From positions 1-28,316 of the forward strand of contig JAAXHV010000241.1 of NCBI GenBank assembly GCA_012270695.1: a stretch of DNA of 28,316 nt, given 5' to 3'. The number at the start of each line of letters is the position of its first letter. Position 1 is the first letter of the stretch. The position numbers and the translations under genes were made by a program. Below the pieces are notes generated by a model. It ran no database searches and was not told the DNA's origin. It saw only the letters and a program-made list of their open reading frames with translations. This DNA comes from Gammaproteobacteria bacterium. Its GTDB lineage: Bacteria; Pseudomonadota; Gammaproteobacteria; Eutrophobiales; Eutrophobiaceae. Below, piece after piece: positions 381 through 28,059 of this stretch.

Positions 381-803
381 ATGAATACAAGCGCTATACT
401 CTGTCCCATGGTCGCATTGGCATGGTGGACTATTGCCATTTTCATGCTGATTCCCTATCGGCGCCTGAATCCGTCGTTAAACAAAGGCGTCAGGCTCGCT
501 GACTACATCGCAGGTGAGCCGGACGAGCTGCCCTCTTATGTTTCGTTGCCAAATCGAAACATCATCAACCTGTTCGAAGTGCCAGTCCTGTATTACGTTT
601 CCTGCACAATACTGTTCATCACCGGTAGCGTCAACAATCTGGTTGTCGGTCTTGCATGGGGCTACTTCGGTTTGCGCATCGTACATAGCCTGATCCATGT
701 AACCTATAACAATGTAACTCATCGCGCTACAGTGTTCGGGCTCAGCGCTGTCGTCCTGGTCGTTTTGATGGTAGAGATGACCAGAGCTGTGTCTACCCTT
801 TAG
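381..803 (+). CDS. MAPEG family membrane protein
   Basis: 140 aa with four hydrophobic segments. Motifs NLFEVPVLYY and LRIVHSLIH are typical of bacterial MAPEG proteins. AGGAG Shine-Dalgarno just upstream. Confidence 0.82.
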   Translation: MNTSAILCPMVALAWWTIAIFMLIPYRRLNPSLNKGVRLADYIAGEPDELPSYVSLPNRNIINLFEVPVLYYVSCTILFITGSVNNLVVGLAWGYFGLRIVHSLIHVTYNNVTHRATVFGLSAVVLVVLMVEMTRAVSTL

Positions 804-825
804 CCCTTCATCTGAACCAGAAGCC

Positions 826-2013
826 ATGAACTCCGCAGCAGGACGACCGCCTATCCTTTTGCTGATTGCTGCTTCTTCGTTGTCTCCTTTCGCCTTGACC
901 GTGTGTGCGCCCGCGCTGCCGATGCTCGGCCGCGAGTTTGATCTCCCCGGTTCTACTATACAGTTCGCAGTTTCCATCTTTCTACTGGGTTTGATGCTAG
1001 CCCAACCTGTCCACGGTGTGCTGGCTGATCGTTATGGGCGCCGCTCGGTACTGCTTTGGAGTTTCAGCCTGTTTACGCTCTCCAGCATGGCCTGCGGTTT
1101 GGCCAATAGCATGCCTTTGCTTGTCATTTTCCGTTTCCTGCAGGCATCTGGTATTGCCGCCAGTTTCGTTGTTGCACGGGCTATCATTCAGGATATGTGT
1201 GACGATGATGATGACGCTGCCCGTTATACGGCTTATCTTGCCGGTGGCATGGCTATCTCACCCATGTTCGCGCCGGTGTTGGCGGGCTACCTGATCGAGG
1301 TGTCGGGTTGGCGCATGATCTTTCATGTTACCACAGGATTAGCCCTGGCCGTTCTTGCCTGGCTGTTGCTGGTCTTGCCGGAAACCATCCGCCAGGTACA
1401 GTCAGTCGGTAACGCCTTCAGTCAAATGGGGGGTAACATCGCCGAGTTGCTTAAATCCAGACTGTTTCTGGGTTATTCTTTGATAATCTGTTTTATTAAT
1501 GCCATTTTCTTTGCATTCCTTACCAGCGCCCCCTTGTATTTCCAGGAGCAGCTGCACGTCGAGCCGGCGCTTTTCGGCATTTACATGGGTGTCTGCGCAT
1601 TCACTTACATCTGCGGCACATTCAGCAGCAGTGTGCTGATCCAGCGCCGTGGTATGCAGCATACGTTGCGGCTGGGAGTTGTCGGCACCTTCTTCAGTGG
1701 CCTGCTTGTCACGCTGGCGTTTGTGTTTTTTGGCAATAGCGTCTTCATGATCCTCGTGCCATTCATGCTGCTGTTCGCATTTACCGGAGTGGGTAATCCT
1801 CCTGCCTTGAGCGCTGTGCTTATGAACCATCCGGACAAGGCCGCGACTGCCTCGGGGTTATCCAACAGTATGACCGTGGGAACGGGGGCCCTGGCAACTG
1901 CGCTGACTGCGCTGGTTTATAATGACACCGCCCTGAGTTTGTCCCTGCCGATGATAATACTGGTTACTTTGCCTGCCCTGACATACCTGCTCCTGGTGAG
2001 AAATCGGGGCTAG
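826..2013 (+). CDS. Bcr/CflA-type MFS drug resistance transporter
   Basis: 395 aa with about 12 hydrophobic segments, MFS motif A (GVLADRYGRRSVL), PALP in TM1 and motif C-like SPMFAPVLAG. Confidence 0.88.
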   Translation: MNSAAGRPPILLLIAASSLSPFALTVCAPALPMLGREFDLPGSTIQFAVSIFLLGLMLAQPVHGVLADRYGRRSVLLWSFSLFTLSSMACGLANSMPLLVIFRFLQASGIAASFVVARAIIQDMCDDDDDAARYTAYLAGGMAISPMFAPVLAGYLIEVSGWRMIFHVTTGLALAVLAWLLLVLPETIRQVQSVGNAFSQMGGNIAELLKSRLFLGYSLIICFINAIFFAFLTSAPLYFQEQLHVEPALFGIYMGVCAFTYICGTFSSSVLIQRRGMQHTLRLGVVGTFFSGLLVTLAFVFFGNSVFMILVPFMLLFAFTGVGNPPALSAVLMNHPDKAATASGLSNSMTVGTGALATALTALVYNDTALSLSLPMIILVTLPALTYLLLVRNRG

Positions 2014-2045: not shown

Positions 2046-5000
2046 TTATACCCTGTTGCTGTACGTCATGAAAGTACGGTAAAGCCAGGGAATGACGAAA
2101 AGCGTCAGCCCGGTGGAGAATGCCAGCCCCCAGACAATGGTGGTTGCAACGTTGCCCCAGATGACTGACTTGCCGGCAAGCCCTGCGGCCAATGAAAATA
2201 ATCCTGCGATGGTAGTCAGGGAAGTAATGAGAATAGGGATCACCCGTCGCTTGGCGGCATATATGGTGGCATGCAGTAAGCTCATGCCGTTTTCCAGACG
2301 CGTATTTGCCGCTGATATCAGTACGATGGCAGAGTTGACCGAAATCCCGAACAAGGCAACGATGCCATACATGGTGAACAGGCTCAACGGGTTTTGCGTC
2401 ACCAGCAGCCCGAGGGTGACGCCGGTGAATGCCAGCGGCACGCTGGCAATGACCATAAAAGGCTGAAAGTAGCTACGGAATTGCGTTCCCAGGATAATGT
2501 AAATAATACCCAGACCAAGCAGCGCCAGTAGCCGGAGCGCATCCAGGCTTTCCCTGATATCATCCATTTCCCCGGTCAAATCCAGCAACAGGGTAGGATA
2601 TTTATCCTGTATCCTGGCCCAAGCGTCCCGGATCAGGTTATTGGCTTGTACGGTATTGATTTTGTCCTTGTCCAGATCACTTTCCAATGCTATCGCCCGG
2701 TGAAAATTGTAATGTCGAATGTTTTGCTGCCCGTTGCCCGTAGTGCCATAGACCAACTCACTCAAAGGGATGGATTGCCCCTCGTCCAATGAGATCGTCT
2801 GCGCCATCAAGTTGTCGATACTGTTTATGCCATCTGTTTTTGCGAGTACCCTGACTTTCACTTCTTCGCCCCGATCGTGGAAATCTGTCACGATTTCACC
2901 ATCCACGTAAGTTTGCAATACCCGACTGATGGTGGTGGGGTCCAGGCCTGCCCGTTGTATCGCCTCACCGTCAAGCCGTAATGCCAGTTCCGGATTCCCG
3001 GGGCGATAATCCATGGTAATGTCCCGGTACTCCGGTTGCGATTCAAGGAACTCCCGCAACTCCATGGCCGCCGGCAACAGGTTCGCATAGTCATCTCCCA
3101 GAATTTTAACACTCACAGGCTTTCGCGTCGGCGGCCCGTCCGTTAGTTCCTGGACGGATATATCTATGGGTCCGGGTATATTTTTGACGCGTTTTCTGAC
3201 TTCATCAGTAATGACTGTAACATGACGCCCCCCATGGGTTTGCGGTTTCAGGCTGAACAGCACCTGCCCAATGGTATCGCCAAACAATGGCTCCATCTGG
3301 GTGAACTGTTGCCCGGCAACAGCGACGGAGGCGCTCAGCTCGCCAGGCAAAAATGTTTTCAAGGCTGCCTTTTCAACTATCGATAATACCCGGTTGGTGT
3401 CTTCCAGGGATGAACCCTGTGGCATTTCTATATTCAGGTAAAACAGCCGTTGCAGATCATCTTCAAAAAAATTGACTCGAATCTGACCGCTCTTCAGTGC
3501 GCCGACAGCCAGAAAGAAAACCAGCAGAATCGCCACCAGGGTAATCAATGGGTGTCGCAAGGAGCGCAACAACGTCTTAACGTAGCTTCTGCGGATCCAC
3601 CTGGTGACAGCCACCCTCTTTCGTTGCACGCTTCCGGGCCTGGAAAAATCGGTCTTTACTGCCAGCACGTGGGCAGGCAATATCCAATATGCCTGTAACA
3701 AGCTGGCTATCAGGGCAACGGTAACGACCAGCGGGATAACCTTCATAAAATCTCCCAGTACGCCCGGTAACAGCATCAGTGGCAGAAACGCGGCGATGGT
3801 GGTTAACACCGAAGTGGTCACTGGAGCGAATACTTCTTCAAGTGAATCGATAATGCTGCTGATTCCTGTAAAACCTCGGTGCAGTCGGTAGTAAATGGCT
3901 TCAACGACCACTACGGCATCATCGACGATCATGCCCAGCGTAATCACGATACCGAGCAGCACCGTATTACTCAGGGAAAAACCCAGCGCGTCGATCAACA
4001 GGAAGGTACCGGCAAGGGTGAAAAAAATACCGATACTGGTCAAAAAAGCAATACGTGAACCCAGGAATACCCAAGTAACCAACAATACGAAAAAAAAGCC
4101 GATCAAAGCGTTATCCTGCATCAGACCGAGGGACTTGCGGGTAGCACCTGTCTGATCATCCACCAGAAAAATTTCCACCCCGGTTACGTGTTTGAAGCGG
4201 TTGCGCTCCTCTATGTATTGATTGATGCGGTCAACCAGTTCCAGCACATTGGTATCCGGCTGTTTGGTAATGGCCAGTAGGGCAGCCGGAGCTCCGCGAA
4301 AAGTGACCTTTGTCTGGGGTTCTTCCCTGGTACGGATCAGCTCAGCCAGGGACCCAAGCGGAACGACTTCTCCGGTAGCTGTGATAATGGGCATGTCCCG
4401 CAGGACCGACGGATCAGGGTCCGTGCTTTGCAAACGTATTACCCATTTGCCGTCCGCGGTTTCCAGGTCGCCGGCAGATATGTCACGAAAATAAGAACGA
4501 ACAGTCCTGGCAATATCCGCGGGCGTGATTCCCAGTCCCTCAAGGCGCTCCGGGATAAAAATCACGTGCAGCTCCGGGTCGGAACGTCCCACAACTGTGA
4601 CGCGATCCGACCCTTCGATCCGTTCCAGGACCTTGGTAATGTTGAGCGTTTGCTGGCTGAGATTTTCATCGTCACCAGGGCTGGTGACCACAACCATAGC
4701 GGTGGGATAAGCGTTGGAGCTGCTGATCTCATACACGACCGGATCTTCAGCTTCCTCCGGGAGTTCATCGAGGTAGGTGTTTTGCACTTCTCGCCTTAGC
4801 TCGGCGATGCGTTTGTCAAAAGTTCTCTGGTCGAGTTCGTTGAACCGCATCAGAATACTGGATACCCCTTCCCGACTGGTGCTGATCGCAAATTTAATAT
4901 CCCTGACGTTGTTCCGCAAAGCATCCTCAAGGGGGTCAGTCACCCGGCGTTCCACGTCGGTGGCAGCGGCGCCAGGGAATACGGTAAAAATAGTGACCCA

Positions 5001-5129
5001 GTTCAAATTGATTTCCGGAATTTTGCTCCTGGGCATTTGTAAATAAGTGGCAAACCCAAACACAATGACCAGGACAAAAGTCAGGTTTGCCAATACGTGG
5101 TTGGAGATCAACTTACGGAAAAGATTCAT
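2046..5129 (-). CDS. RND efflux transporter permease subunit (AcrB/AcrD/AcrF family)
   Basis: 1027 aa. N-terminal NHVLANL, PG motif, TM4 GMIVDDAVVVVE, TM11 PILITSLTT, and two large periplasmic domains. Confidence 0.95.
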   Translation of the reverse strand: MNLFRKLISNHVLANLTFVLVIVFGFATYLQMPRSKIPEINLNWVTIFTVFPGAAATDVERRVTDPLEDALRNNVRDIKFAISTSREGVSSILMRFNELDQRTFDKRIAELRREVQNTYLDELPEEAEDPVVYEISSSNAYPTAMVVVTSPGDDENLSQQTLNITKVLERIEGSDRVTVVGRSDPELHVIFIPERLEGLGITPADIARTVRSYFRDISAGDLETADGKWVIRLQSTDPDPSVLRDMPIITATGEVVPLGSLAELIRTREEPQTKVTFRGAPAALLAITKQPDTNVLELVDRINQYIEERNRFKHVTGVEIFLVDDQTGATRKSLGLMQDNALIGFFFVLLVTWVFLGSRIAFLTSIGIFFTLAGTFLLIDALGFSLSNTVLLGIVITLGMIVDDAVVVVEAIYYRLHRGFTGISSIIDSLEEVFAPVTTSVLTTIAAFLPLMLLPGVLGDFMKVIPLVVTVALIASLLQAYWILPAHVLAVKTDFSRPGSVQRKRVAVTRWIRRSYVKTLLRSLRHPLITLVAILLVFFLAVGALKSGQIRVNFFEDDLQRLFYLNIEMPQGSSLEDTNRVLSIVEKAALKTFLPGELSASVAVAGQQFTQMEPLFGDTIGQVLFSLKPQTHGGRHVTVITDEVRKRVKNIPGPIDISVQELTDGPPTRKPVSVKILGDDYANLLPAAMELREFLESQPEYRDITMDYRPGNPELALRLDGEAIQRAGLDPTTISRVLQTYVDGEIVTDFHDRGEEVKVRVLAKTDGINSIDNLMAQTISLDEGQSIPLSELVYGTTGNGQQNIRHYNFHRAIALESDLDKDKINTVQANNLIRDAWARIQDKYPTLLLDLTGEMDDIRESLDALRLLALLGLGIIYIILGTQFRSYFQPFMVIASVPLAFTGVTLGLLVTQNPLSLFTMYGIVALFGISVNSAIVLISAANTRLENGMSLLHATIYAAKRRVIPILITSLTTIAGLFSLAAGLAGKSVIWGNVATTIVWGLAFSTGLTLFVIPWLYRTFMTYSNRV

Positions 5130-5140
5130 ATTTGCGGGTT

Positions 5141-6181
5141 TCAGGGAATCACTGAAATGGTCTGCGAATCTCTTAACGCGTGTTGTCCTTCCGTGATAAG
5201 CAGCGTATCCGGCGCCAGATCTATGGGTGTTGGTCGGCCCGGTTGTGCGTCGGAAATGATTTTGAACCGGGCTTTGCCCTGCTTGGCAAGAAAGACTCCA
5301 AAACTGTCATTGCGGCGCACCAGAAGCTTGCCAGGCACGTGCGGACGCTCGTCGCGCCAGACGAGTCTGCCGGCCGCTCCGGGCAGTGCTGACTCATCAA
5401 CAAACAGCAACCGGACCTCCTGATTTCGGGTTCGGGTATTGATCGCCGGCACTGTCGTTCGTATTTTTACCGGGTACCGCCCTGCCGAATCTTCAAAATA
5501 CAACGCGCTGATATGGTTGACCTGGTCCACGTCTCCGATTGGAAGTTGGGCGGACACCTCCAGTTGTTCAAAATCCACGATTTCAAACAGTTTTGTTCCC
5601 TCTTTGGCGAAGTCGCCCACGGCGCCGATTCGGGCCGTGATGACAGCCCGGTAGGGACTTTTTAACAGACAGTGGGAGACATCGGTTTCCGCTTCCTTGA
5701 GGCTTGATAATGCAGCCTCACGATCGGCGTGTAATACCGCAAGCTCGGCTTCCCTTTGGTCCAGCAGTTCTTCGGTTACCGTCTTGCTTTCTATCAGTTT
5801 CCTGGTTCGTTCCAGACGGCGCTCCGCTAACTTTATACGCGCTTGCAAGGAGGCGATGCGAGCTTTCGTTTGTTGCGCTGCCAGATCATAATAAGTACAA
5901 TCCAGCCGCGCCAGCACGCTACCTGCCTCGACCACTTCGCCGACTTTGACGAAAATCTCTTCCACCCGTGCTTTGATCTGCGTTGAAAGTAACGTGTTGT
6001 TCAGACTGACGACGGTGGCAGGCGCGGACTTTTGTGGATAGACAGCAATGTCGGCCAGACGCGCAGTTTTCACCAGGTTAGCCGTCTGTGCATTGATCAG
6101 GGGCGAGAACACCAGGAACAGACATGTAAGAAAAGCCAGCGGGGTACAGAGACGAGGTTTGTTGCTCATTATTTTAGCCAT
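5141..6181 (-). CDS. RND efflux periplasmic adaptor (membrane fusion protein)
   Basis: 346 aa. Signal-like N terminus, lipoyl half motif VKVGEVVEAGSVLARLD, coiled hairpin, LKSPYRAVI second half motif. Ends 11 nt before the RND gene. Alternative start at 6169. Confidence 0.92.
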   Translation of the reverse strand: MAKIMSNKPRLCTPLAFLTCLFLVFSPLINAQTANLVKTARLADIAVYPQKSAPATVVSLNNTLLSTQIKARVEEIFVKVGEVVEAGSVLARLDCTYYDLAAQQTKARIASLQARIKLAERRLERTRKLIESKTVTEELLDQREAELAVLHADREAALSSLKEAETDVSHCLLKSPYRAVITARIGAVGDFAKEGTKLFEIVDFEQLEVSAQLPIGDVDQVNHISALYFEDSAGRYPVKIRTTVPAINTRTRNQEVRLLFVDESALPGAAGRLVWRDERPHVPGKLLVRRNDSFGVFLAKQGKARFKIISDAQPGRPTPIDLAPDTLLITEGQHALRDSQTISVIP

Positions 6182-6322
6182 TACCTGATCAGCACACCCG
6201 CATTTGTTGATGATACTGGATTCGGCCCATGTAGTAAACGTGCGCCATTTTTAATGCTCCATGTTTAAAACACGCCGGCAGGTTTTCAGGCTGTGTATTA
6301 TGCAGTTGAAGTAGTTGCATGT

Positions 6323-6350
6323 TTGACAGCGTTGCGTCACTGATTATAAG
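6323..6350 (+). promoter_or_regulatory. Putative sigma70 promoter for the P450-sulfotransferase operon
   Basis: TTGACA (6323-6328), 16-nt spacer, TATAAG (6345-6350). It lies 16 nt upstream of ATG 6367, with GGA at 6356-6358. Confidence 0.6.
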
Positions 6351-6366
6351 ATTTTGGAAAAAACAG

Positions 6367-7728
6367 ATGCCAGCCATGACTAAAAAACTGCCTCCTGGCC
6401 CTAAAGGCACAGGTGTCCTGAATGTGCTGCGGCGTGTCCGGGACCCCTTAGGGTTTCTCTTTTCATTACATGAACAATACGGGGGGATTGTCTGCTTCCC
6501 GACTTTTTTCCGCAGAACATGCGTGGTGTTTGATGCCGATTTGATTAATGAGGTGCTCTCAGCACAACATTCATCATTCGAGAAGGGGCCTTTTGCCAAG
6601 TCCCTGGTAGAAAATCCAACAACGGGAACAGCGGAAGGAAAGGAGCACCAGCGCATGCGAAAGCTGGTGAGGCCACTCTATCTCAGGAATGCCCTGGAGG
6701 GGTACGGCAAGATCATGGTAGAAGCAGCAGGGCGATTACAGGAACATTGGCGTGATGGTGACACCGTGGACATTGCGACCAATATGCACGTTATGTCTCA
6801 AAACGTGGTATCCAGAACTTTTTTTGGGCAAGACACGACTTTTGACCCGAAACTCGTCGAGGAAATGGTACGCTCGGGTGGATGGTTGCTGATTCTTACC
6901 ATGTTGCCGTTCAGGAAGCTGATTGAACACTTGCCGCTACCGCATAATCGGCGTCTTGAGGAGCAGTATGCAGCGTTTGACCAGGTGGTTTACGACCTGA
7001 TCAAGAGAGCCCGCAACCAGGACGAAGAGCGCACCGACCTGGTATCGTTGCTGACTAACGCGCGGGATGAAGAAGGCATTGAGCAGCCTTTGAACGACAG
7101 GGAAATCAGGGATGAAACTCTTATCCAACTCTTTGCCGGATATGAAACGGTAGCAAACTCCATGGCCTGGTGTTTTTACCATCTCAGCCGGAATCCGGCA
7201 GCGCGAGAACGCATGGAGCAGGAAATCGACGAGGTTCTGGGTGGCAGGCTGCCTACCCCCGCGGATCACTCGAAACTGGTTTACACCCGCGCTGTTTTCG
7301 ACGAGTCGCTGCGTCTGAATCCCCCTCTCTATGTTGTTGGCCGCAGGGCCGTTGAGGATTGCGTTATCGGCGGCTATGACATTCCCAAGGGAACAGTGGT
7401 CCAGCCTGTTCTGTTGGCTCCTCACCTGAAAGAGAAATACTATCCCCAGGCCGATGAGTTCAAGCCGGAGCGCTGGCTCCAGGGAGTTAAGGCGCGACCA
7501 AAGAATGCCTACCTGCCGTTCTCGAGCGGTCCCCGGGCCTGTATTGGTTCGAATTACGCCAGGTTGGAAGCGATAACGACACTGGTCACCGTCAGCCAAC
7601 GCTGGCGGCTCGAAGTTATTTCGGATGATCCTCCGGAAGTCAGCGCGCTGATCTTATACCGGTTTAAACATGGTCTTCCGGTAAGGCTGCACAAACGCAA
7701 GTCAGCGCCTCTCGAAACGTCAGCTTAA
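6367..7728 (+). CDS. Cytochrome P450
   Basis: Motifs PPGP, I-helix AGYET, K-helix ESLR, FKPERW and haem-binding FSSGPRACIG. The ORF track starts at 6319, but the promoter inside those first codons favours ATG 6367 (or 6376). Confidence 0.96.
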   Translation: MPAMTKKLPPGPKGTGVLNVLRRVRDPLGFLFSLHEQYGGIVCFPTFFRRTCVVFDADLINEVLSAQHSSFEKGPFAKSLVENPTTGTAEGKEHQRMRKLVRPLYLRNALEGYGKIMVEAAGRLQEHWRDGDTVDIATNMHVMSQNVVSRTFFGQDTTFDPKLVEEMVRSGGWLLILTMLPFRKLIEHLPLPHNRRLEEQYAAFDQVVYDLIKRARNQDEERTDLVSLLTNARDEEGIEQPLNDREIRDETLIQLFAGYETVANSMAWCFYHLSRNPAARERMEQEIDEVLGGRLPTPADHSKLVYTRAVFDESLRLNPPLYVVGRRAVEDCVIGGYDIPKGTVVQPVLLAPHLKEKYYPQADEFKPERWLQGVKARPKNAYLPFSSGPRACIGSNYARLEAITTLVTVSQRWRLEVISDDPPEVSALILYRFKHGLPVRLHKRKSAPLETSA

Positions 7729-7736
7729 GTATCGGG

Positions 7737-8777
7737 ATGAAGCGGGTTACCACCATCCCGCCGGTTTTCGTCGTCGGCACCGGGCGCTGTGGTTCGACGA
7801 TGATATCCAAGGTGTTGAACCGTCACCCGGACGTGCTTAGCCTGTCCGAGTTCTTCGGCTTCCTCGAATTGAAGTGGTGCGTCTATCGCAGACGCAGCGG
7901 AGAGCAGATGTGGGACTTCTACAGCCGGCACCGAAACCGCACGCGTCTCATGTTGCGCGGGCACTACGAGGAATTGCTTTATCCGTTTGATAATGAGGAC
8001 GCCCGCTATACGCGGCGTAACTTACCTCCTATCCTGTGTACTACGCTCCCGAATCTCACCAGCCGTCACGAGGAGCTGTTCGATGAGCTCAGACCCTTTG
8101 TCCAGGCGCAGCCAAAGCAACGGCCGGCAGACCACTTCAGAAGTCTTTTCGAGTGGTTGTGTGAGCGCTTTGGACGGAAAATATGGGTTGAACGTTCCGG
8201 CACATCGTTGATGCTCGTATCGAAACTGATGCATGAGTTTCCTGACGCACGCTTCATACACATATATCGCGATGGACGGGAAGTAGCCATATCGATGAGC
8301 CGGCATTATCTTTTTCGCACCATCCTGGCCAACGTGATGCTGTTGCGGCGCTTCGGTGTTGACACCATCAAGATGATGGCTAACGGGAGACGCTGGCAGA
8401 AAATCAATCCCTGGTTGGAGTTGTTGGCAAACGGGCTGATAAATCCGAGCTGGCTGCCTTATGATAAAGCGGCGTTGTCTGACTATGCGGCATTCTGGCA
8501 GGTACAGATCGACATGACTCATGACCTTTTCAGCCAGCTTCCGGCCACCAGGTTGCTGAATATCAGGTTTGAAGACATGCTTGCACAGCCGGAAGAGCAA
8601 CTTCAACGCCTGATTCGCTTCATCGACCCGTCACTGGAAAATAAGACCTGGTTGCAGGAGGTGTCAGGGATCCCGCGCCCGGTACAGCCGAAGTTTGAAC
8701 AGCTCGGTGACTATGACAAAGCCGCGATCATTGCGGCATGCCGTGCCGGATTGGAAAGTCTCGACTACCCGGTCTAA
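7737..8777 (+). CDS. PAPS-dependent sulfotransferase (Sulfotransfer_3-like)
   Basis: 5'-PSB loop VGTGRCGSTM, HPDVLSLSE, 3'-PB motif IHIYRDGREVAISM, and RFEDMLAQPEE near the C terminus. Starts 8 nt after the P450 stop. Confidence 0.92.
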   Translation: MKRVTTIPPVFVVGTGRCGSTMISKVLNRHPDVLSLSEFFGFLELKWCVYRRRSGEQMWDFYSRHRNRTRLMLRGHYEELLYPFDNEDARYTRRNLPPILCTTLPNLTSRHEELFDELRPFVQAQPKQRPADHFRSLFEWLCERFGRKIWVERSGTSLMLVSKLMHEFPDARFIHIYRDGREVAISMSRHYLFRTILANVMLLRRFGVDTIKMMANGRRWQKINPWLELLANGLINPSWLPYDKAALSDYAAFWQVQIDMTHDLFSQLPATRLLNIRFEDMLAQPEEQLQRLIRFIDPSLENKTWLQEVSGIPRPVQPKFEQLGDYDKAAIIAACRAGLESLDYPV

Positions 8778-9973
8778 TACTCGATTGACTGCTCCACCCT
8801 GACATGGTCCGGCAACTGGTACTTGATATCGTCCAGCATGGACGCTTCGAGTAAAAAAACAAAGTTTTGGCCGCGCCACTTATTGGCAAAGTCCGGAGCC
8901 GCCTTATGAGACAAACCGTACATTTGGCGTAGCAATCGCAGGGTCTGCAGAAACCCTGCAGTATTACATTTTGGTAACGCCAGCTTGTCCGCCAACTCGT
9001 TGCCAAGTACCGCGCGGGAGACCCGGAATACATGCTTCAGCATTTTTTCCTGGTCTGCCGGGTGGATCTTACCCGCAATCTCAGGTAAAGCCCGCACCAG
9101 GGCATTGGCAATCATCGCCGATTCCTTCGATGGTGGCGGTTCGCATATCCCGGCGATTTTTAGAAATTCACGGGTTTTGGCCTCGTCACCCTCGAACAAC
9201 AGGGCTTCGGGGGTCCCGACCAGGTAGGAGGCGTAACGCCAGATTTGCATGAAGCTATTGCGCGTCTTCTTGTTCATGCGCGCCCCGAGTTTGCGCGCGT
9301 TCTCCAGCATGGTAGCGGAGAAGTTCGCGGAAGCAAGCCCCTGGTGAGCGGCGCTGATTGGCTCACCCCAACTTGCTGCGTTCCAATCTTCCGATTCCCG
9401 AATCAGCTTCCTGAGCCGCGCATGCACCAGCCGGATGCGCACAGACAAACGCCAACCGTCCCCCTGGTCCACCAGCGCGCCAGGGAGCATAATTTCAACA
9501 AAGTGCCTGGTATTTTGTCTTATCCGCCGCAGGCCAAAATCGCTGACCACCCGGCCGGTTGCATGGAATGACTTAGCGATCAGGCTGGCAGCATTTTGCA
9601 CCGTGACCAGGAAAAATGCAGGTATAAACAAATCCGAATGTTCGTGGAAACTGCGACGGCCTGCCTCGAATTTCTCCGGTTCCAACCAGGCCGGTGGTTG
9701 TTTCATCTCCTCAAAAAAATCACGCAGACTCTTCGGCGCCTGCGCTAAAACCTCTTCATTTCCCTGCATCCCAGCCATGATGAACCTGTGTTCCTGTTGC
9801 TGGGTTAAATCTGCCAACTCCTCCATCAGGGAGTCGGCTATGGGGTCACCAACAGTTATATGCTCGATATATGTTTCAGCGAGTCCGGGATTCAGCTTTT
9901 TTGCCTTTTCGTACCCGTCCTCAAAGGCAGTGGGCACTGTCAAGTTGGAATTGTCAGAGATAAATCCTGCCAT
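8774..9973 (-). CDS. MpaB/Lcp (rubber oxygenase catalytic domain, DUF2236) family haem oxygenase
   Basis: 399 aa. GDPIAD, PPAWL, RRIRQNTR and RIRLVHARLR with Arg-to-His spacing of 34 residues as in Lcp, PISAAHQ, QIWRYASYLVG. No obvious Tat or Sec signal. Confidence 0.85.
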   Translation of the reverse strand: MAGFISDNSNLTVPTAFEDGYEKAKKLNPGLAETYIEHITVGDPIADSLMEELADLTQQQEHRFIMAGMQGNEEVLAQAPKSLRDFFEEMKQPPAWLEPEKFEAGRRSFHEHSDLFIPAFFLVTVQNAASLIAKSFHATGRVVSDFGLRRIRQNTRHFVEIMLPGALVDQGDGWRLSVRIRLVHARLRKLIRESEDWNAASWGEPISAAHQGLASANFSATMLENARKLGARMNKKTRNSFMQIWRYASYLVGTPEALLFEGDEAKTREFLKIAGICEPPPSKESAMIANALVRALPEIAGKIHPADQEKMLKHVFRVSRAVLGNELADKLALPKCNTAGFLQTLRLLRQMYGLSHKAAPDFANKWRGQNFVFLLEASMLDDIKYQLPDHVRVEQSIEY

Positions 9974-10017
9974 TTCTACGTCTAGTTGGTTGCCTTCACG
10001 CTGATTAGTTCAATATA

Positions 10018-11475
10018 TTACCCCCCCCCCCGATTTTCCAGTCTCTCCGACAGCAGTTGGTTGACCTGTTTCGGGTTGGCCTTGCCTTGAGATTTTTTCA
10101 TCACCCGGCCGACGAAATAGCCGATCATTTTCCCCCGTTTTTCCGGCGCCGCGCTGCGGTATTGCTGCACTTGCGCACTGTTTTCGGCGATGACCTCATC
10201 CACCAGCCGGCCTATTGCACCGCTATCGGTAAGCTGTTTCAATCCCTGCTTTTCGATGACATCATCGACCCCGCCGGCGCCATCCCATAAGGCTTCAAAA
10301 ACCTGCTTGGCGATTTTATTTGAGATGGTGCCGTCGGCAATGCGCGTTACCAGTCCAGCCAGCATCGCCGCGTTTACCTTGCTGTGATTGATGGCGATAT
10401 TTTCACGATTCAAAGCGGCTCCCAGTTCCCCCATGATCCAGTTTGCAACCGGTTTGGCCTGACCGGGAGCGGCGGCGACGGCAGCCTCAAAATAGTCCGC
10501 GCTGTCCTTGTTCGCGACCAGGTAGCCGCTGTCATATTCCGACAGGCCGTATGTTTCAATGAACCGCTGTTGTTTCTGTTCCGGCAACTCCGGCAGTTGC
10601 TTCCTGACGGCTTCAATATAGTCATTATCAATGACTACAGGGGGAAGGTCCGGGTCGGGGAAATAGCGGTAATCATTTGCTTCTTCCTTGCCTCGCATCG
10701 AACGGGTTTCATTTTTTTCCGGGTCGAACAAGCGGGTTTCCTGCACCACCTCATTACCGGATTCGACAAGCTCTACCTGCCGGCTGATTTCAAAATTTAT
10801 CGCCTGCTCAACAAAGCGGAATGAATTGATATTTTTTGTCTCCGTGCGGGTTCCCAACCGGGTTTCGCCTTCCGGCCTGATCGATACGTTGGCATCACAG
10901 CGGAATGAGCCCTCCTGCATGTTGCCATCAGAGATATCCAGGTAACGGACCAGGGAATGGATCTTTTTCATAAGCGCGACCGCTTCTGCGGCAGAGCGTA
11001 AATCGGGTTCGGATACGATCTCGATCAGCGGGGCGCCGGCGCGATTCAGGTCAATCGCGGTAAACCCGGCAAAACCCTCGTGGATGGATTTGCCGGCGTC
11101 TTCTTCCAGGTGCGCCCTGGTGATACCGATTTCCCTGGTTATGCCGTCAAGCTGTATCCGTATTTTTCCGGCGCTGACGACAGGCAATTCATACTGGCTG
11201 ATCTGGTAACCTTTGGGCAGGTCCGGGTAAAAATAATTTTTTCTTGCAAATACGGAGCGTTTTGCAATGCTGGCATCGATAGCGAGGCCGAATTTGACCG
11301 CCATCCGTATCACTTCCTCGTTGGCTACAGGCAGTACGCCGGGAAGTCCCAGGTCAACGGCACATGCCAGGGTGTTGGCGGTCGCGCCGAACCGGTTGGC
11401 CGCGCCCGAGAAAATTTTGCTCTGCGTAGCCAATTGCACGTGCAGTTCAAGACCGATGACGGATTCCCATTGCAT
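10018..11475 (-). CDS. gatB: Asp-tRNA(Asn)/Glu-tRNA(Gln) amidotransferase subunit B
   Basis: [44 protein letters not shown] and a C-terminal YqeY-like domain. Confidence 0.99.
10021..10031. repeat. C11/G11 homopolymer tract
   Basis: Eleven consecutive C on the + strand. On the - strand they encode the last codons of gatB (CGG GGG GGG GGG TAA). Confidence 0.95.
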
Positions 11476-11480
11476 GGTGA

Positions 11481-12932
11481 CTACCAGCCTCCTGGTATCT
11501 GTTTGTGCCAGTCGGTCATCTGCTGGTACTGGTGAGCGACATTCAACAGCCTGGCTTCATGGAAATAATTACCGATGATCTGCATACCGATCGGCAGACC
11601 GAGGCTGAACCCCACCGGGATTGAAATGGCGGGCAATCCGGCGAGATTGACGGATACGGTATAAATATCGGACAGGTACATGGCTACCGGATCATCGATG
11701 CGGGAACCCAAGGGAAATGCGGTTGACGGAGTCGTGGGCGTTATGATGACGTCCACCCGGTCCAGCGCAGCGCGAAATTCATCCCGCAACAGGCGCCTCA
11801 ACTTTTGCGCTTTCAGGTAATAGGCATCGTAGTATCCTGCGGACAACACGTAAGTTCCAATCATGATCCTGCGTTTGACCTCATTGCCGAAACCCTCGCT
11901 GCGGGAACGACAAAACAGGTCTTTGATATCCTCAGGATCCGTGCATCGATGGCCAAAGCGCACGCCATCGTAACGGGACAGGTTTGAAGAACATTCGGCG
12001 GAGGCGATTACATAGTAGACCGGGATGGACAATTCGGTATGGGGCAATTCGATGTCGATAATTGACGCGCCTTCCTGTTCGTACAAATTCAACGCGGCTG
12101 TGAGCGCGTCGGCGACGGGTTGTTCCAGTCCGGCGGAAAAATATTCCCTGGGCAGGCCGATCTTCAGCCCCTTGATATCGTTATTTAAAGCATCCAGGTA
12201 ATTGTCGACCCGGACATTGGCGCAAGTCGCGTCCCTGGGGTCGAACCCGGACATGGCGGACAACAGCATGGCCGCATCCTGCGCGGTTTGCGTGATGGGA
12301 CCACCCTGGTCCAGACTGGAGGCATAAGCGACCATGCCGTAACGGGAGACACGCCCATAAGTGGGTTTCAACCCGGTCACACCGCATAATGCTGCCGGTT
12401 GCCTGATTGAGCCACCCGTATCCGTAGCAGTCGCCGCCGGCACCAGCCTGGCGCTGACTGCGCAAGCCGAGCCACCGGAAGAACCGCCCGGCACCCGCTG
12501 ATGATCCCACGGATTTTTGACGGGGCCGTAATAACTGGTTTCGCTGGACGACCCCATGGCAAACTCATCCATATTGGTCTTTCCGATCATGACGCTCCCT
12601 GCGGCATCGATCCTTCCTGTGGCGGTTGCGCTGTAGGGAGCAACGAAGTTATCCAGCATTTTTGATGCGCAACTCGTTTTGAAACCTGCAGTGCAAAAAA
12701 TGTCTTTGTGCGCAATGGGCATGCCTGTTAAAGGTCCGGCCTCACCGGCGGCGATCAGCCGGTCTGCCACTTTTGCCTGTTCAAGCGCATATTCAGGAAA
12801 CAGCGAAATGAAACAGTTCAGCTCATCGTTAAATTGTTCAGTCCGGTGCAGACAGGATTTGACCAGGTCGATACTGCTGATTTCCCGTCCTTGCAGCAAG
12901 CGGGATAATTCCGCAAGCGTATATCCAATCAT
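11481..12932 (-). CDS. gatA: Asp-tRNA(Asn)/Glu-tRNA(Gln) amidotransferase subunit A
   Basis: Amidase signature [31 protein letters not shown]; [22 protein letters not shown]. Confidence 0.99.
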
Positions 12933-25415: not shown

Positions 25416-26432
25416 TTAGAACGTCGCAGGGACCGGTGGCAGTTCGCCTGCGGCGTAGCGTTTCTCCAGGCCCGGTGTCAGATTTTCCCAGACCAGCAGC
25501 ATGGAACGTTTCGGAGAAAAGCCGCGATGGCGTATATCCGCCGGCATACAGGCCACGTCCCCGGCCTTCATGGTGACCACGGACATGGGCGCGGCGGTAT
25601 CTTTGTCCGCTACTTTCCAGGTAATCTCATCGGACATCTGGATAAACCATTCCACCCGGTCATTGCCGTGGTCCACCGGCAGGATATGCTCTTCCGACGT
25701 CGGGCAGTAAGCGCTGCTCCTGACCACGGAAACGACGGACGGATTCCAGGTGACTGGTGAGCGGGACAGGTACTTGAACAGGTTGAACCCCGCCAGTTGA
25801 CCTTCAAATCCGGCTTCGGCATGTACTTCCGGTTCGGACTGGTCCACGTCTGCGAACTGCCGGTTAACTAGTCGTCCATTTTCATCGGAGCGTATGGGAC
25901 TATCGCCGGGCAGGCTGACGAAACGAGCAGCCAGTTCCCGTTGGAAATTGACGGCTTCATCGTTGTTACCGTTTTTGGGTCCGCGCGCGCTGCCGGTCTC
26001 CAGGGGGGCGGCGAAGGGGTCAAAGCCAGCATTGGTCCAATCTGAGAGCAGAGACTTGAAACAGGCCAGCATTACGCCTGCCTCAAAGCGTTCGGTAAAG
26101 TCCGTACCGGAATCCTTATAGGCCTGGTTATAGGCACCCATAAAGACGTCAACGCTGCCGTAATTATTCACCGTGCCGAATACCTCATCGAAGTTGACCC
26201 AGCCGTAGAAAAAGCCCCAGGCCACGTCCCGCATAAGAGAGCGCAGAAAATTCTCCACGTCCATCACGTGAGTCCCGGTCGGACACTGGATACGGGCAAA
26301 ATATTCATCCCGTTGAAACGTGAACGAGCCGATTTCAAAACGTTTGTAACCGGTGGTCGGATGTGGCGCGCTTTCCCGGTGCGCTTCGGTAAGAACCGGC
26401 AATTCAGTCATTTTTTCAGCTGTGGCTGCCAT
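25416..26432 (-). CDS. hqdB: Hydroquinone 1,2-dioxygenase large (beta, catalytic) subunit, HapD/PnpD/HqdB family
   Basis: FLRSLMRDVAWGFFYGWVNFD, ILPVDHGNDRVEWF, DIRHRG, RSMLLVWEN. His, Glu(+6), His(+47) match the Fe(II) ligand spacing of PnpD. Confidence 0.92.
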   Translation of the reverse strand: MAATAEKMTELPVLTEAHRESAPHPTTGYKRFEIGSFTFQRDEYFARIQCPTGTHVMDVENFLRSLMRDVAWGFFYGWVNFDEVFGTVNNYGSVDVFMGAYNQAYKDSGTDFTERFEAGVMLACFKSLLSDWTNAGFDPFAAPLETGSARGPKNGNNDEAVNFQRELAARFVSLPGDSPIRSDENGRLVNRQFADVDQSEPEVHAEAGFEGQLAGFNLFKYLSRSPVTWNPSVVSVVRSSAYCPTSEEHILPVDHGNDRVEWFIQMSDEITWKVADKDTAAPMSVVTMKAGDVACMPADIRHRGFSPKRSMLLVWENLTPGLEKRYAAGELPPVPATF

Positions 26433-26450
26433 GATAATTTCCCCTTTATG

Positions 26451-26951
26451 TCAGTGCTGGCAGATCTCCGCCCACTTCTCGACGGACTCATCGCCAAGTA
26501 AAGTTTGCAGTAATATCACGCTTAACTCGCCGGCACGAAACTGGTAGGCCGCGCCGGCCGGCAACAGGACCAAGTGGCCCCGCGTCGCCTTGATATGGCC
26601 CATGACCTGACCTTCCGGCTGACCAGCCAGTTTCACGGACCCCTCCTTCTCCGCCGGTGGAACCAGGCCACTGTCTGCAGGTTGAACAAACCGGGTTTCC
26701 ATGCTGCCCTGCATGAGCAGCGCGGTCTCATCATGACTGCATATATACCAGGAACTGTCGCCTTCGGCGCGGATACACTCGATGGTGTTCTCCAGGTTTT
26801 TAGCTATGACAACCCGCTCCCAGGGTTCTGCGTTGCCGGCTACCTCGTACATATTGGAAAACAGGTAATCCCGGGCTTCCTCATTGCCGGTAATTTCAAC
26901 GCCACCCTTGTCGTACTTGTCAATACTGCCGAATACGGTTGTTACGGACAT
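26451..26951 (-). CDS. hqdA: Hydroquinone 1,2-dioxygenase small (alpha) subunit, HapC/PnpC/HqdA family
   Basis: TVFGSIDKYDKGGVEI, YLFSNMYEVA, HDETAL, GHLVLLPAGAAYQF. 166 aa, directly upstream of the large subunit, GAGGGAG SD. Confidence 0.9.
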   Translation of the reverse strand: MSVTTVFGSIDKYDKGGVEITGNEEARDYLFSNMYEVAGNAEPWERVVIAKNLENTIECIRAEGDSSWYICSHDETALLMQGSMETRFVQPADSGLVPPAEKEGSVKLAGQPEGQVMGHIKATRGHLVLLPAGAAYQFRAGELSVILLQTLLGDESVEKWAEICQH

Positions 26952-26988
26952 GGTCTCCCTCTAAAGGTCATTAAGGAACTCAGCTTAA

Positions 26989-27006
26989 CATATTAGACAA
27001 AATATG
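26989..27006. promoter_or_regulatory. Inverted repeat upstream of hqdA, candidate operator
   Basis: CATATT-AGACAA-AATATG, a perfect 6-6-6 inverted repeat starting about 37 nt upstream of the hqdA ATG. Confidence 0.35.
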
Positions 27007-27027
27007 AGGCACTGCAGGCGACACATT

Positions 27028-28023
27028 TTACCCGCTCCCATCTGCAGATAACAAATGCCGTTCATGGGGCGCCTCGGGGTGAAAATCTGGTCCTACGGGA
27101 ACTATGCCGGTCGGGTTCACCATGCTGTGACTGCCAAAATAAGACTTTTTGATATGTTCCATGTTAATCGTTTCCGCTACCCCGGGCTGTTGGTAGAGAT
27201 CACGGGTATAGGCCCATAAATTCGGATAATCGACCAGTCGTTTTCTATTACATTTAAAATGGCTCACGTACACCGGGTCGAACCGGATTAGCGTAGTGAA
27301 CAAACGCCAGTCCGCCTCGGTGATCCGACTACCGGTCAGGTAGCGGCGGTTTTGCAGACTGTCTTCAAGCCATTCCAAGGTATCAAACAACGGATAGACC
27401 GCTTCTTCATAAGCTTCCTGGGTGGTGGCAAAACCGGCCCGGTACACGCCGTTATTCAGGGTTTTGAACACCCGGCTGTTGATCGCATCGATCTCATCCC
27501 GCAGGTGTTCCGGGTAATAATCACCCTGCCTGGCGCCGGCCCCATCGAATGCGCTGTTGAACATGCGGATGATTTCCGATGATTCATTGGAAACGATGGT
27601 GTTGCTGCGTTTATCCCATAAGGCCGGTACGGTGACTCTGCCGGAATACCCGGGGTCTGCAGCAGTGTAGATTTCGTAATAATATTTCGCGTTAAACATC
27701 GGGTCGGGGATAACGCCGTCACCCGGTTCAAACGTCCAGCCGTGCTCGCCCAGGTGCCAATGGACCACGGAAAGGGAGATCATCCCTTCAAGACCTTTAA
27801 TACTGCGGTAGATCATGGTGCGGTTGGCCCAGGGACAGGCATGGGAGACATACAGGTGATAGCGATCAGCCTCAGCCTTGAACCCTCCTGTACCGGAAGG
27901 TCCTGGTGAACCGTCTTTGGTTACCCAGTTACGGAACCGGGATTCAGAACGTATGAACCGTCCTTGATTGGACTCGGTGTCATACCATTCATCCTGCCAT
28001 TTGCCTTCTACCAATAGACCCAT
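27028..28023 (-). CDS. yqjG: Glutathionyl-hydroquinone reductase (Xi/omega-like GST, YqjG/PcpF family)
   Basis: MGLLVEGKW, RYHLYVSHACPWANR (active-site CPWA), RVTVPALWD, IVSNESSEI, NNGVYRAGF, TLIRFDPVY, NPTGIVP. True start is ATG 28023, with AGGA upstream. Confidence 0.95.
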   Translation of the reverse strand: MGLLVEGKWQDEWYDTESNQGRFIRSESRFRNWVTKDGSPGPSGTGGFKAEADRYHLYVSHACPWANRTMIYRSIKGLEGMISLSVVHWHLGEHGWTFEPGDGVIPDPMFNAKYYYEIYTAADPGYSGRVTVPALWDKRSNTIVSNESSEIIRMFNSAFDGAGARQGDYYPEHLRDEIDAINSRVFKTLNNGVYRAGFATTQEAYEEAVYPLFDTLEWLEDSLQNRRYLTGSRITEADWRLFTTLIRFDPVYVSHFKCNRKRLVDYPNLWAYTRDLYQQPGVAETINMEHIKKSYFGSHSMVNPTGIVPVGPDFHPEAPHERHLLSADGSG

Positions 28024-28059
28024 CTCATTTTCCTGAAACGTGAATGTCAAAGGCGCTAT

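Follow-up and report, generated by a model that had tools for sequence, protein, structure and literature searches.

The DNA analysed here, referred to as the window, is a 28,316-nucleotide stretch from a gammaproteobacterium of the Eutrophobiaceae (JAAXHV010000241.1; contig 32 in an assembly of 3.26 Mb that is fragmented and 89% complete, G000 below). It carries three adjoining genes encoding a cytochrome P450 (P450), a sulfotransferase and a protein of the MpaB/Lcp family (hereafter MpaB-like), which probably constitute one undescribed pathway oxidising and sulfating a lipophilic molecule. A tight P450–sulfotransferase operon and a convergent MpaB/Lcp gene with overlapping stop codons had been noted in a preliminary description of this DNA, and the coordinates were confirmed (Table 1). 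Eight nucleotides (7729–7736) separate the P450 gene from the sulfotransferase gene, both on the + strand, and in the CTAA at the far end of the latter the sulfotransferase stop TAA (8775–8777) overlaps the MpaB-like stop TAG (reverse complement of 8774–8776). A longer P450 frame (6319–7728, +) is possible. The start at 6367 is preferred because the alignment with orthologues begins no earlier than residue 17 of that frame and because a promoter-like site lies at 6323–6352.

Table 1. Features of the window.
Feature	Position	Strand	Basis
Cytochrome P450, module-specific clade, without membrane anchor	6367..7728	+	Pfam p450, motifs, tree
PAPS-dependent sulfotransferase (Sulfotransfer_3); PAPS, 3'-phosphoadenosine 5'-phosphosulfate	7737..8777	+	Pfam, motifs, fold model
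Cytoplasmic Lcp/MpaB-family (DUF2236) haem oxygenase-like protein	8774..9973	-	Pfam, LcpK30 sequence and fold match
Convergent overlapping stop codons, sulfotransferase/MpaB-like gene	8774..8777	.	Sequence CTAA
Sigma-70-like promoter candidate upstream of P450 start	6323..6352	+	TTGACA-18-TAAGAT, 10/12 consensus matches only
Weak promoter-like site upstream of MpaB-like gene, spanning G11 tract	10012..10040	-	TGGAAA-17-TATATT, 9/12 matches
Resistance-nodulation-division (RND) efflux pair: AcrB-type permease 2046-5129 and adaptor 5141-6181	2046..6181	-	Pfam, NCBIfam; divergent from P450
MAPEG protein 381-803 and Bcr/CflA-type major facilitator superfamily (MFS) pump 826-2013	381..2013	+	Pfam, NCBIfam

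The translations of the three genes matched the Pfam families p450, Sulfotransfer_3 and MPAB_Lcp_cat, in each case above the curated cut-off. For the MpaB-like protein the MPAB_Lcp_cat (PF09995) match scored 7.1e-16 and 59.4 bits (cut-off 23; 60.7 bits when the genome was searched), and the best sequence match was LcpK30 (PDB 5o1l/5o1m, 3e-10). Its predicted structure (mean predicted local distance difference test, pLDDT, 86.9) has the all-helical Lcp fold, with template modelling (TM) scores of 0.63–0.69 to 5o1m/5o1l over ~375 residues. A rubber oxygenase was the top Swiss-Prot fold match, and t-anethole oxygenase, fungal MpaB and Rv2237 matched more weakly. Residues R150 and H184 correspond in the alignment to R164 and the haem ligand H198 of LcpK30, with an identical Arg–His spacing of 34 residues in the two proteins, and are invariant in 19 homologues. 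According to a published description (PMC12724181), bacterial members of the MpaB family use haem b in cleaving C=C bonds, and by analogy an Lcp-like haem-b oxygenase of this activity is predicted here. Its N terminus, MAGFISDNSNLTVPTAFEDGYEK, contains neither a twin-arginine motif nor a hydrophobic segment as judged by eye; without a signal peptide, the protein is therefore taken as a cytoplasmic relative of the secreted enzyme.

The sulfotransferase was assigned through Sulfotransfer_3 (2.7e-24; 87.1 bits, cut-off 27) and modelled with a pLDDT of 91.6. A GRCGST loop (G16-R17-C18-G19-S20-T21) together with E38, R178 and S186 is conserved in 30 homologues; as in TPST2, these residues probably form the 5'-phosphosulfate loop and the 3'-phosphate motif. 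The nearest solved structures were the sulfotransferase domain of CurM (4gbm, E 1.3e-8, the best match), that of olefin synthase (OLS, rank 4), the tyrosylprotein sulfotransferases (TPSTs) and mycobacterial Stf9 and Stf1, at modest TM scores (0.44–0.57) and with the TPSTs equal to CurM in score. Among Swiss-Prot models the nearest were CHST7/2 and Stf3 (P9WLG1; rank 6, 16% identity, TM 0.50/0.45). These nearest structures, and the distance of Stf3 at 16% identity and a TM of about 0.5, indicate a distinct subfamily and no orthologue of Stf3.

The fold matches also suggest a different role for the sulfate, as a leaving group. The P450 would hydroxylate a saturated position, the sulfotransferase would sulfate it, departure of the sulfate would leave a C=C bond for the Lcp-like enzyme to cleave, in a chain-cutting catabolic or remodelling route. 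Such a scheme draws on the CurM and OLS domains ranking first and fourth among solved structures, on the presence among fold matches of retinol dehydratase and LGS1, for which sulfate is a leaving group, and on a linear succession of the enzymes, each acting on the product of the one before. It is improbable, however, as the TM scores are modest and the TPSTs score alike; no polyketide synthase (PKS), acyl carrier protein (ACP) or thioesterase was found in any locus, and the second sulfotransferase copies and in-cluster PAPS synthesis described below fit a stable sulfated product at least equally well.

The P450 matched Pfam p450 (PF00067, 1.5e-75, 255 bits), and its translation contains the haem-Cys motif FSSGPRACIG and the I-helix sequence AGYET. 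Its nearest named relatives were CYP170A1 and pentalenene oxygenase, both sesquiterpene oxidases, along with BM3, CYP3A4, CYP97 and CYP120, and all named-family scores fell far under the equivalog cut-offs. The best PDB match was 7WZL, which is mentioned in no paper of the searched literature. In a tree of 22 P450s, the 10 that are co-located with both partners formed one clade (support 100/98), outside of which fell free P450s, a P450 fused to GPP34 and the sulfotransferase-fused P450 of locus L038. By local BLAST, linked P450s were 38–58% identical to the window protein, compared with ~30% for unlinked P450s of relatives.

The preliminary description had drawn a parallel to Cyp128–Stf3 of Mycobacterium tuberculosis, the precedent for hydroxylation followed by sulfation in the synthesis of sulfomenaquinone (S881). 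Taken as homology, the window would hold a proteobacterial counterpart in which the polyprenyl tail of a respiratory quinone, here ubiquinone, is omega-hydroxylated by the P450, sulfated by the sulfotransferase and trimmed by the MpaB-like protein, much as fungal MpaB' acts on a farnesyl chain. The tight co-directional P450 and sulfotransferase genes agree with this, as do the documented Cyp128/Stf3 chemistry, the appearance of Stf3 at rank 6 among the structural matches and the precedent of an MpaB-family enzyme acting on a prenylated aromatic compound. Yet CHST7, TPST and the CurM domain match the sulfotransferase as well as or better than Stf3, and the relatives of the P450 lie elsewhere, with no mycobacterial P450 among the top 60 matches listed. 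Many loci pair MpaB-like and sulfotransferase genes without a P450, so hydroxylation followed by sulfation cannot be the core logic. We therefore retain the parallel as an analogy only and hold a Cyp128-like pathway to be an improbable account of this locus.

Conservation of the gene pair is apparent within the genus. Sulfotransferase orthologues were found in just three of 40 relatives, G005 (69% identity), G009 and G012 (both 55%), and in all three the gene adjoins an MpaB-like orthologue, in three differing layouts. The order is MpaB→ST between mreB and gatC in G009, MpaB→ST convergent on gatB in G012, and ST←P450← →P450b→MpaB in G005 (ST, sulfotransferase), where AFG1 and MAPEG genes flank the cassette at an unrelated site. 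More broadly, an MpaB-like orthologue adjoins the sulfotransferase in six of six inspected homologues of at least 50% identity. By local BLAST the MpaB-like partners were 51–59% identical to the window protein (P0003), and same-genus paralogues without a neighbouring sulfotransferase gene were ~40% identical to it. The G005 orthologue is split in two frames (L028 13789–14992; G005:C1:213809-214988; frameshift at offset 565 nt) that are ~70–80% identical to P0003 over the two halves; the split reflects pseudogenisation or else a homopolymer error of long-read assembly. A scan of the genome contigs with the single sulfotransferase protein matched G005 alone and was less suitable than an alignment-based query.

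Counting loci within the genus and beyond it, similar neighbourhoods were present in at least 20 other loci. The absence of such neighbours from unrelated genomes had been proposed as grounds for abandoning the three-gene idea; the recurrent loci were found instead. Examples from outside the genus include an overlapping MpaB→ST pair in a 9.2-Mb genome, MpaB, P450, ST and a second sulfotransferase (ST2) together in a 5.8-Mb genome, MpaB→ST→x→ST2 in a 4.1-Mb genome and STAS→MpaB→ST at another locus. L037 combines MpaB, STAS, a fusion of a short-chain dehydrogenase/reductase (SDR) to a P450 (SDR::P450), ST, CysD and CysNC, and in L049 an SDR gene lies between ST and MpaB. Both gene order and flanking genes vary among these loci.

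The association was quantified on metagenome contigs, where a scan with the sulfotransferase alignment returned 80 loci. Counting only loci with at least 3 kb of flank and scoring MpaB within 5 kb, we found the partner at 6 of 10 loci with sulfotransferase identity ≥39% and at 3 of 47 below that value (Fisher p = 4e-4, for loci that are phylogenetically non-independent); the three positives below 39% were near-identical contigs. This contrast places the MpaB link in one sulfotransferase subfamily. Identity matrices of the two proteins were correlated across 14 loci (Mantel r = 0.53, p = 2e-4), to which shared organismal phylogeny contributes, and the correlation is compatible with co-inheritance. 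L037 joins a sulfotransferase of one subclade to an MpaB-like protein of another, so the modules are occasionally reshuffled. Fusion proteins tie the sulfotransferase to P450s directly, as ST::P450 (P0173, P0215), as P450::ST (L048) and as ST::cNMP::Fer2_BFD::FAD_binding_6::P450 (P0130).

These data place the grouping of the genes far beyond chance. A fortuitous neighbourhood, in which the MpaB-like gene does no more than close the gatCAB transcription unit and is unrelated to the P450–sulfotransferase operon, has in its favour that this gene has the orientation of gatB, lies 44 nt downstream of it and converges on the sulfotransferase gene. It is nonetheless extremely improbable, given the adjacency of the pair in all six close sulfotransferase loci and in many distant ones without gat genes, and the position of the G005 cassette at another site. 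The single three-gene system proposed in the preliminary description gained support from the linkage, the orthologous groups and the fusions. The proposal nevertheless needed narrowing: the conserved core is the MpaB-like protein plus the sulfotransferase, and the P450 is a frequent accessory that is included here. The isoprenoid or prenylquinone substrate suggested there is a conjecture from the known activities of the families.

Sulfotransferase homologues at E ≤ 1e-40 occurred in only one other genome (G380) when 400 evenly sampled genomes of the class were searched. In this 2.0-Mb gammaproteobacterium (L127, G380:C1:728000-747900) a GPP34::P450 fusion gene comes after the sulfotransferase gene (43% identity), with CysNC and an autotransporter alongside and without MpaB, and the locus is a second, MpaB-free type of sulfotransferase–P450 cassette. 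The rare and patchy occurrence, together with the changing flanks, indicates horizontal spread. Genes for supply of the sulfate donor were also found: adenosine 5'-phosphosulfate (APS) kinase was found in all four cassette-bearing genus genomes (G000, G005, G009 and G012), CysD and CysNC lie inside the distant clusters L037 and L048, and CysNC adjoins the sulfotransferase gene in G380. Judging from these genes, PAPS can be supplied.

DNA of the window was recovered in sequencing runs of one host organism and in coral-reef metagenomes, so the host is regarded as a coral-reef-associated bacterium; G+C in the genus was 53–63% across the loci read. The same genome encodes a GPP34::P450 fusion (contig 727, ~894–2786, locus L128; 680-aa frame), an architecture reported to be exclusive to sponge-symbiotic bacteria (PMC11706023). 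With at least six further Sulfotransfer_3 paralogues (contigs 650, 171, 660 with two copies, 732 and 326; 530–600-aa frames), G000 is unusually sulfotransferase-rich.

This host setting, with its sponge-symbiont hallmark and many sulfotransferase paralogues, would also suit a general phase I/II/III detoxification island without a dedicated substrate, in which the P450, the sulfotransferase and MAPEG/glutathione S-transferase (GST) proteins modify varied lipophilic toxins from the host or the environment and RND/MFS pumps expel them. MAPEG, MFS and RND genes do lie directly upstream of the cassette, and RND or MMPL transporters occur at other sulfotransferase loci. Such an island is nevertheless unlikely, since the pumps are non-orthologous between loci (28–31% identity) and absent from most cassette loci, inheritance of both the MpaB–sulfotransferase pair and the P450 clade follows specific orthologous groups, as is typical of a defined pathway, and some clusters carry dedicated PAPS-synthesis genes. 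The pumps were for the same reason rejected as cassette members; the RND pump beside the sulfotransferase gene in L036, for instance, is 28% identical to that of the window. The MAPEG orthologue of G005 (L028 15094–15537; 65% identical) directly adjoins the MpaB-like gene, and MAPEG genes are near the cassette in both P450-containing genus members and not in G009 or G012.

Several observations concern the surroundings of the cassette. A DUF1499 gene adjoins it in three distant loci (L048 13605–16737, L035 3205–3606 and the P0077 locus); within the genus of the window it was either unlinked or undetected. The control genome of Caulobacter vibrioides gave matches to PF13469, PF09995 and PF07386. 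On the flank opposite the pumps, the window continues with gatB, gatA and gatC, then mreBCD, mrdA and rodA. The last codons of gatB ahead of its TAA stop form a G11 homopolymer (10020–10030) that is possibly slippage-prone, and the -35/-10-like pair spanning this tract precedes the start of the MpaB-like gene by 38 nt. Genes for a two-subunit hydroquinone dioxygenase and a glutathionyl (GS)-hydroquinone-reductase-like GST (25416–28050) lie 15 kb from the cassette and show no sign of linkage to it.

Taken together, we put at about 60% the probability that the genes form a conserved cassette of cytoplasmic tailoring enzymes, spread horizontally, for a lipophilic, unsaturated substrate, with an Lcp-like oxygenase and a sulfotransferase as its core and a P450 clade in a subset. 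An isoprenoid substrate is plausible from the chemistry of the enzyme families, the affinities of the P450 and the occurrence of MpaB::Caroten_synth fusion proteins. We infer the following order of reactions. The P450 would hydroxylate the substrate, probably an isoprenoid chain, and the Lcp-like enzyme would cut one of its C=C bonds. The resulting carbonyl might then be reduced to an alcohol, a step that fits the SDR gene in L049 and the SDR::P450 fusion in L037. The sulfotransferase would sulfate a hydroxyl group with PAPS to yield a sulfated, oxidised lipid, perhaps exported by neighbouring pumps.

A number of points weigh against this tailoring cassette. Cleavage of a C=C bond yields carbonyls, so the core pair would need a reductase or an already hydroxylated substrate. 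The distal-side K167/T168 pair of Lcp is Q/N here (RIAKT in Lcp compared with RIRQN), and the Q and N are retained in sulfotransferase-linked orthologues. An isoprenoid-synthesis gene was adjacent in none of the loci examined, and in all genus genomes compared the SQS_PSY gene lay at least 31 kb from the MpaB genes or on other contigs; squalene/phytoene-synthase genes occur in 22 of 22 genus genomes irrespective of the cassette, rendering a phylogenetic profile uninformative. No ferredoxin or reductase was found among the window genes when a redox partner for the P450 was sought, although the distant fusion P0130 does carry the redox domains Fer2_BFD and FAD_binding_6. Co-regulation is called into question by the convergent orientation of the MpaB-like gene, which may be transcribed by read-through from gatCAB instead of from its own promoter. 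Finally, three RNA runs carrying the host label contained no reads on positions 5000–12000 of the window.

A bolder and rather doubtful extension of the tailoring cassette is that it makes a hitherto undescribed class of bacterial sulfated apo-isoprenoid or cleaved lipid. A polyprenyl chain, endogenous or from the host animal, would be cut by an intracellular Lcp-like enzyme and the fragment hydroxylated and sulfated, to serve as a membrane lipid or signal in coral and sponge symbionts. The cassette is present in symbionts of marine invertebrates, animals that are rich in sulfated terpenoids of unclear source, and such products could, if real, explain part of the sulfated terpenoids in corals and sponges. 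Lcp/MpaB enzymes are known for degrading rubber after secretion or for tailoring reactions in fungi, and a cytoplasmic branch inherited with a sulfotransferase would indicate that haem-dependent C=C cleavage has been put to a new use. We know of few bacterial sulfated lipids with known genes, examples being the mycobacterial sulfolipids and S881; a second, widespread bacterial route of lipid sulfation would be new. The three-gene size makes tests by heterologous expression direct.

Each of the enzyme families is known and hydroxylation followed by sulfation has precedent; the pairing of an Lcp-like protein and a sulfotransferase with its own P450 clade is absent from the searched literature. 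Nothing in that literature joins DUF2236 and sulfotransferase, and the sole paper on MpaB and sulfotransferase was irrelevant. The closest system to the MpaB-like protein is LcpK30, the haem-b rubber dioxygenase of Streptomyces sp. K30, which belongs to the same Pfam family and shares the proximal His and the Arg at the same spacing. The window protein differs in its low identity (~17%), the lack of a twin-arginine translocation (Tat) signal peptide, its pairing with a sulfotransferase and the absence of a rubber-degradation context. To our knowledge, no Lcp has been reported as paired with a sulfotransferase. Fungal MpaB/MpaB' of mycophenolic acid biosynthesis, bacterial Nro1 and t-anethole oxygenase (8s1j) are of the same family and perform haem-dependent C=C cleavage of lipophilic substrates. 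In contrast to the window protein they are shorter (~300 aa) and match its model at TM 0.44–0.57; the fungal enzymes are membrane bound, and none is linked to sulfation.

On the sulfation side, Cyp128–Stf3 resembles the cassette in that a P450 adjoins a PAPS-dependent sulfotransferase with broadly the same fold, and in the presumed hydroxylation and subsequent sulfation of a lipid. It differs in its non-orthologous sulfotransferase, in lacking an Lcp/MpaB partner and apparently in the P450 group, and in the cassette the P450 is dispensable. The CurM and olefin synthase domains (4gbm, 4gox) are the best structure matches and are likewise PAPS dependent, but share only 14–15% identity and act as domains of PKS megasynthases on ACP-bound substrates, whereas no PKS is present at the window or any related locus. 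The operons of sponge symbionts that combine a sulfotransferase with GPP34::P450 (GPP34_L, PMC11706023) differ in that their P450 is of another clade, is fused to GPP34 and has no MpaB-like partner, yet their sulfotransferase belongs to the same subfamily (43% identity in G380) and is likewise encoded beside a P450, together with CysNC.

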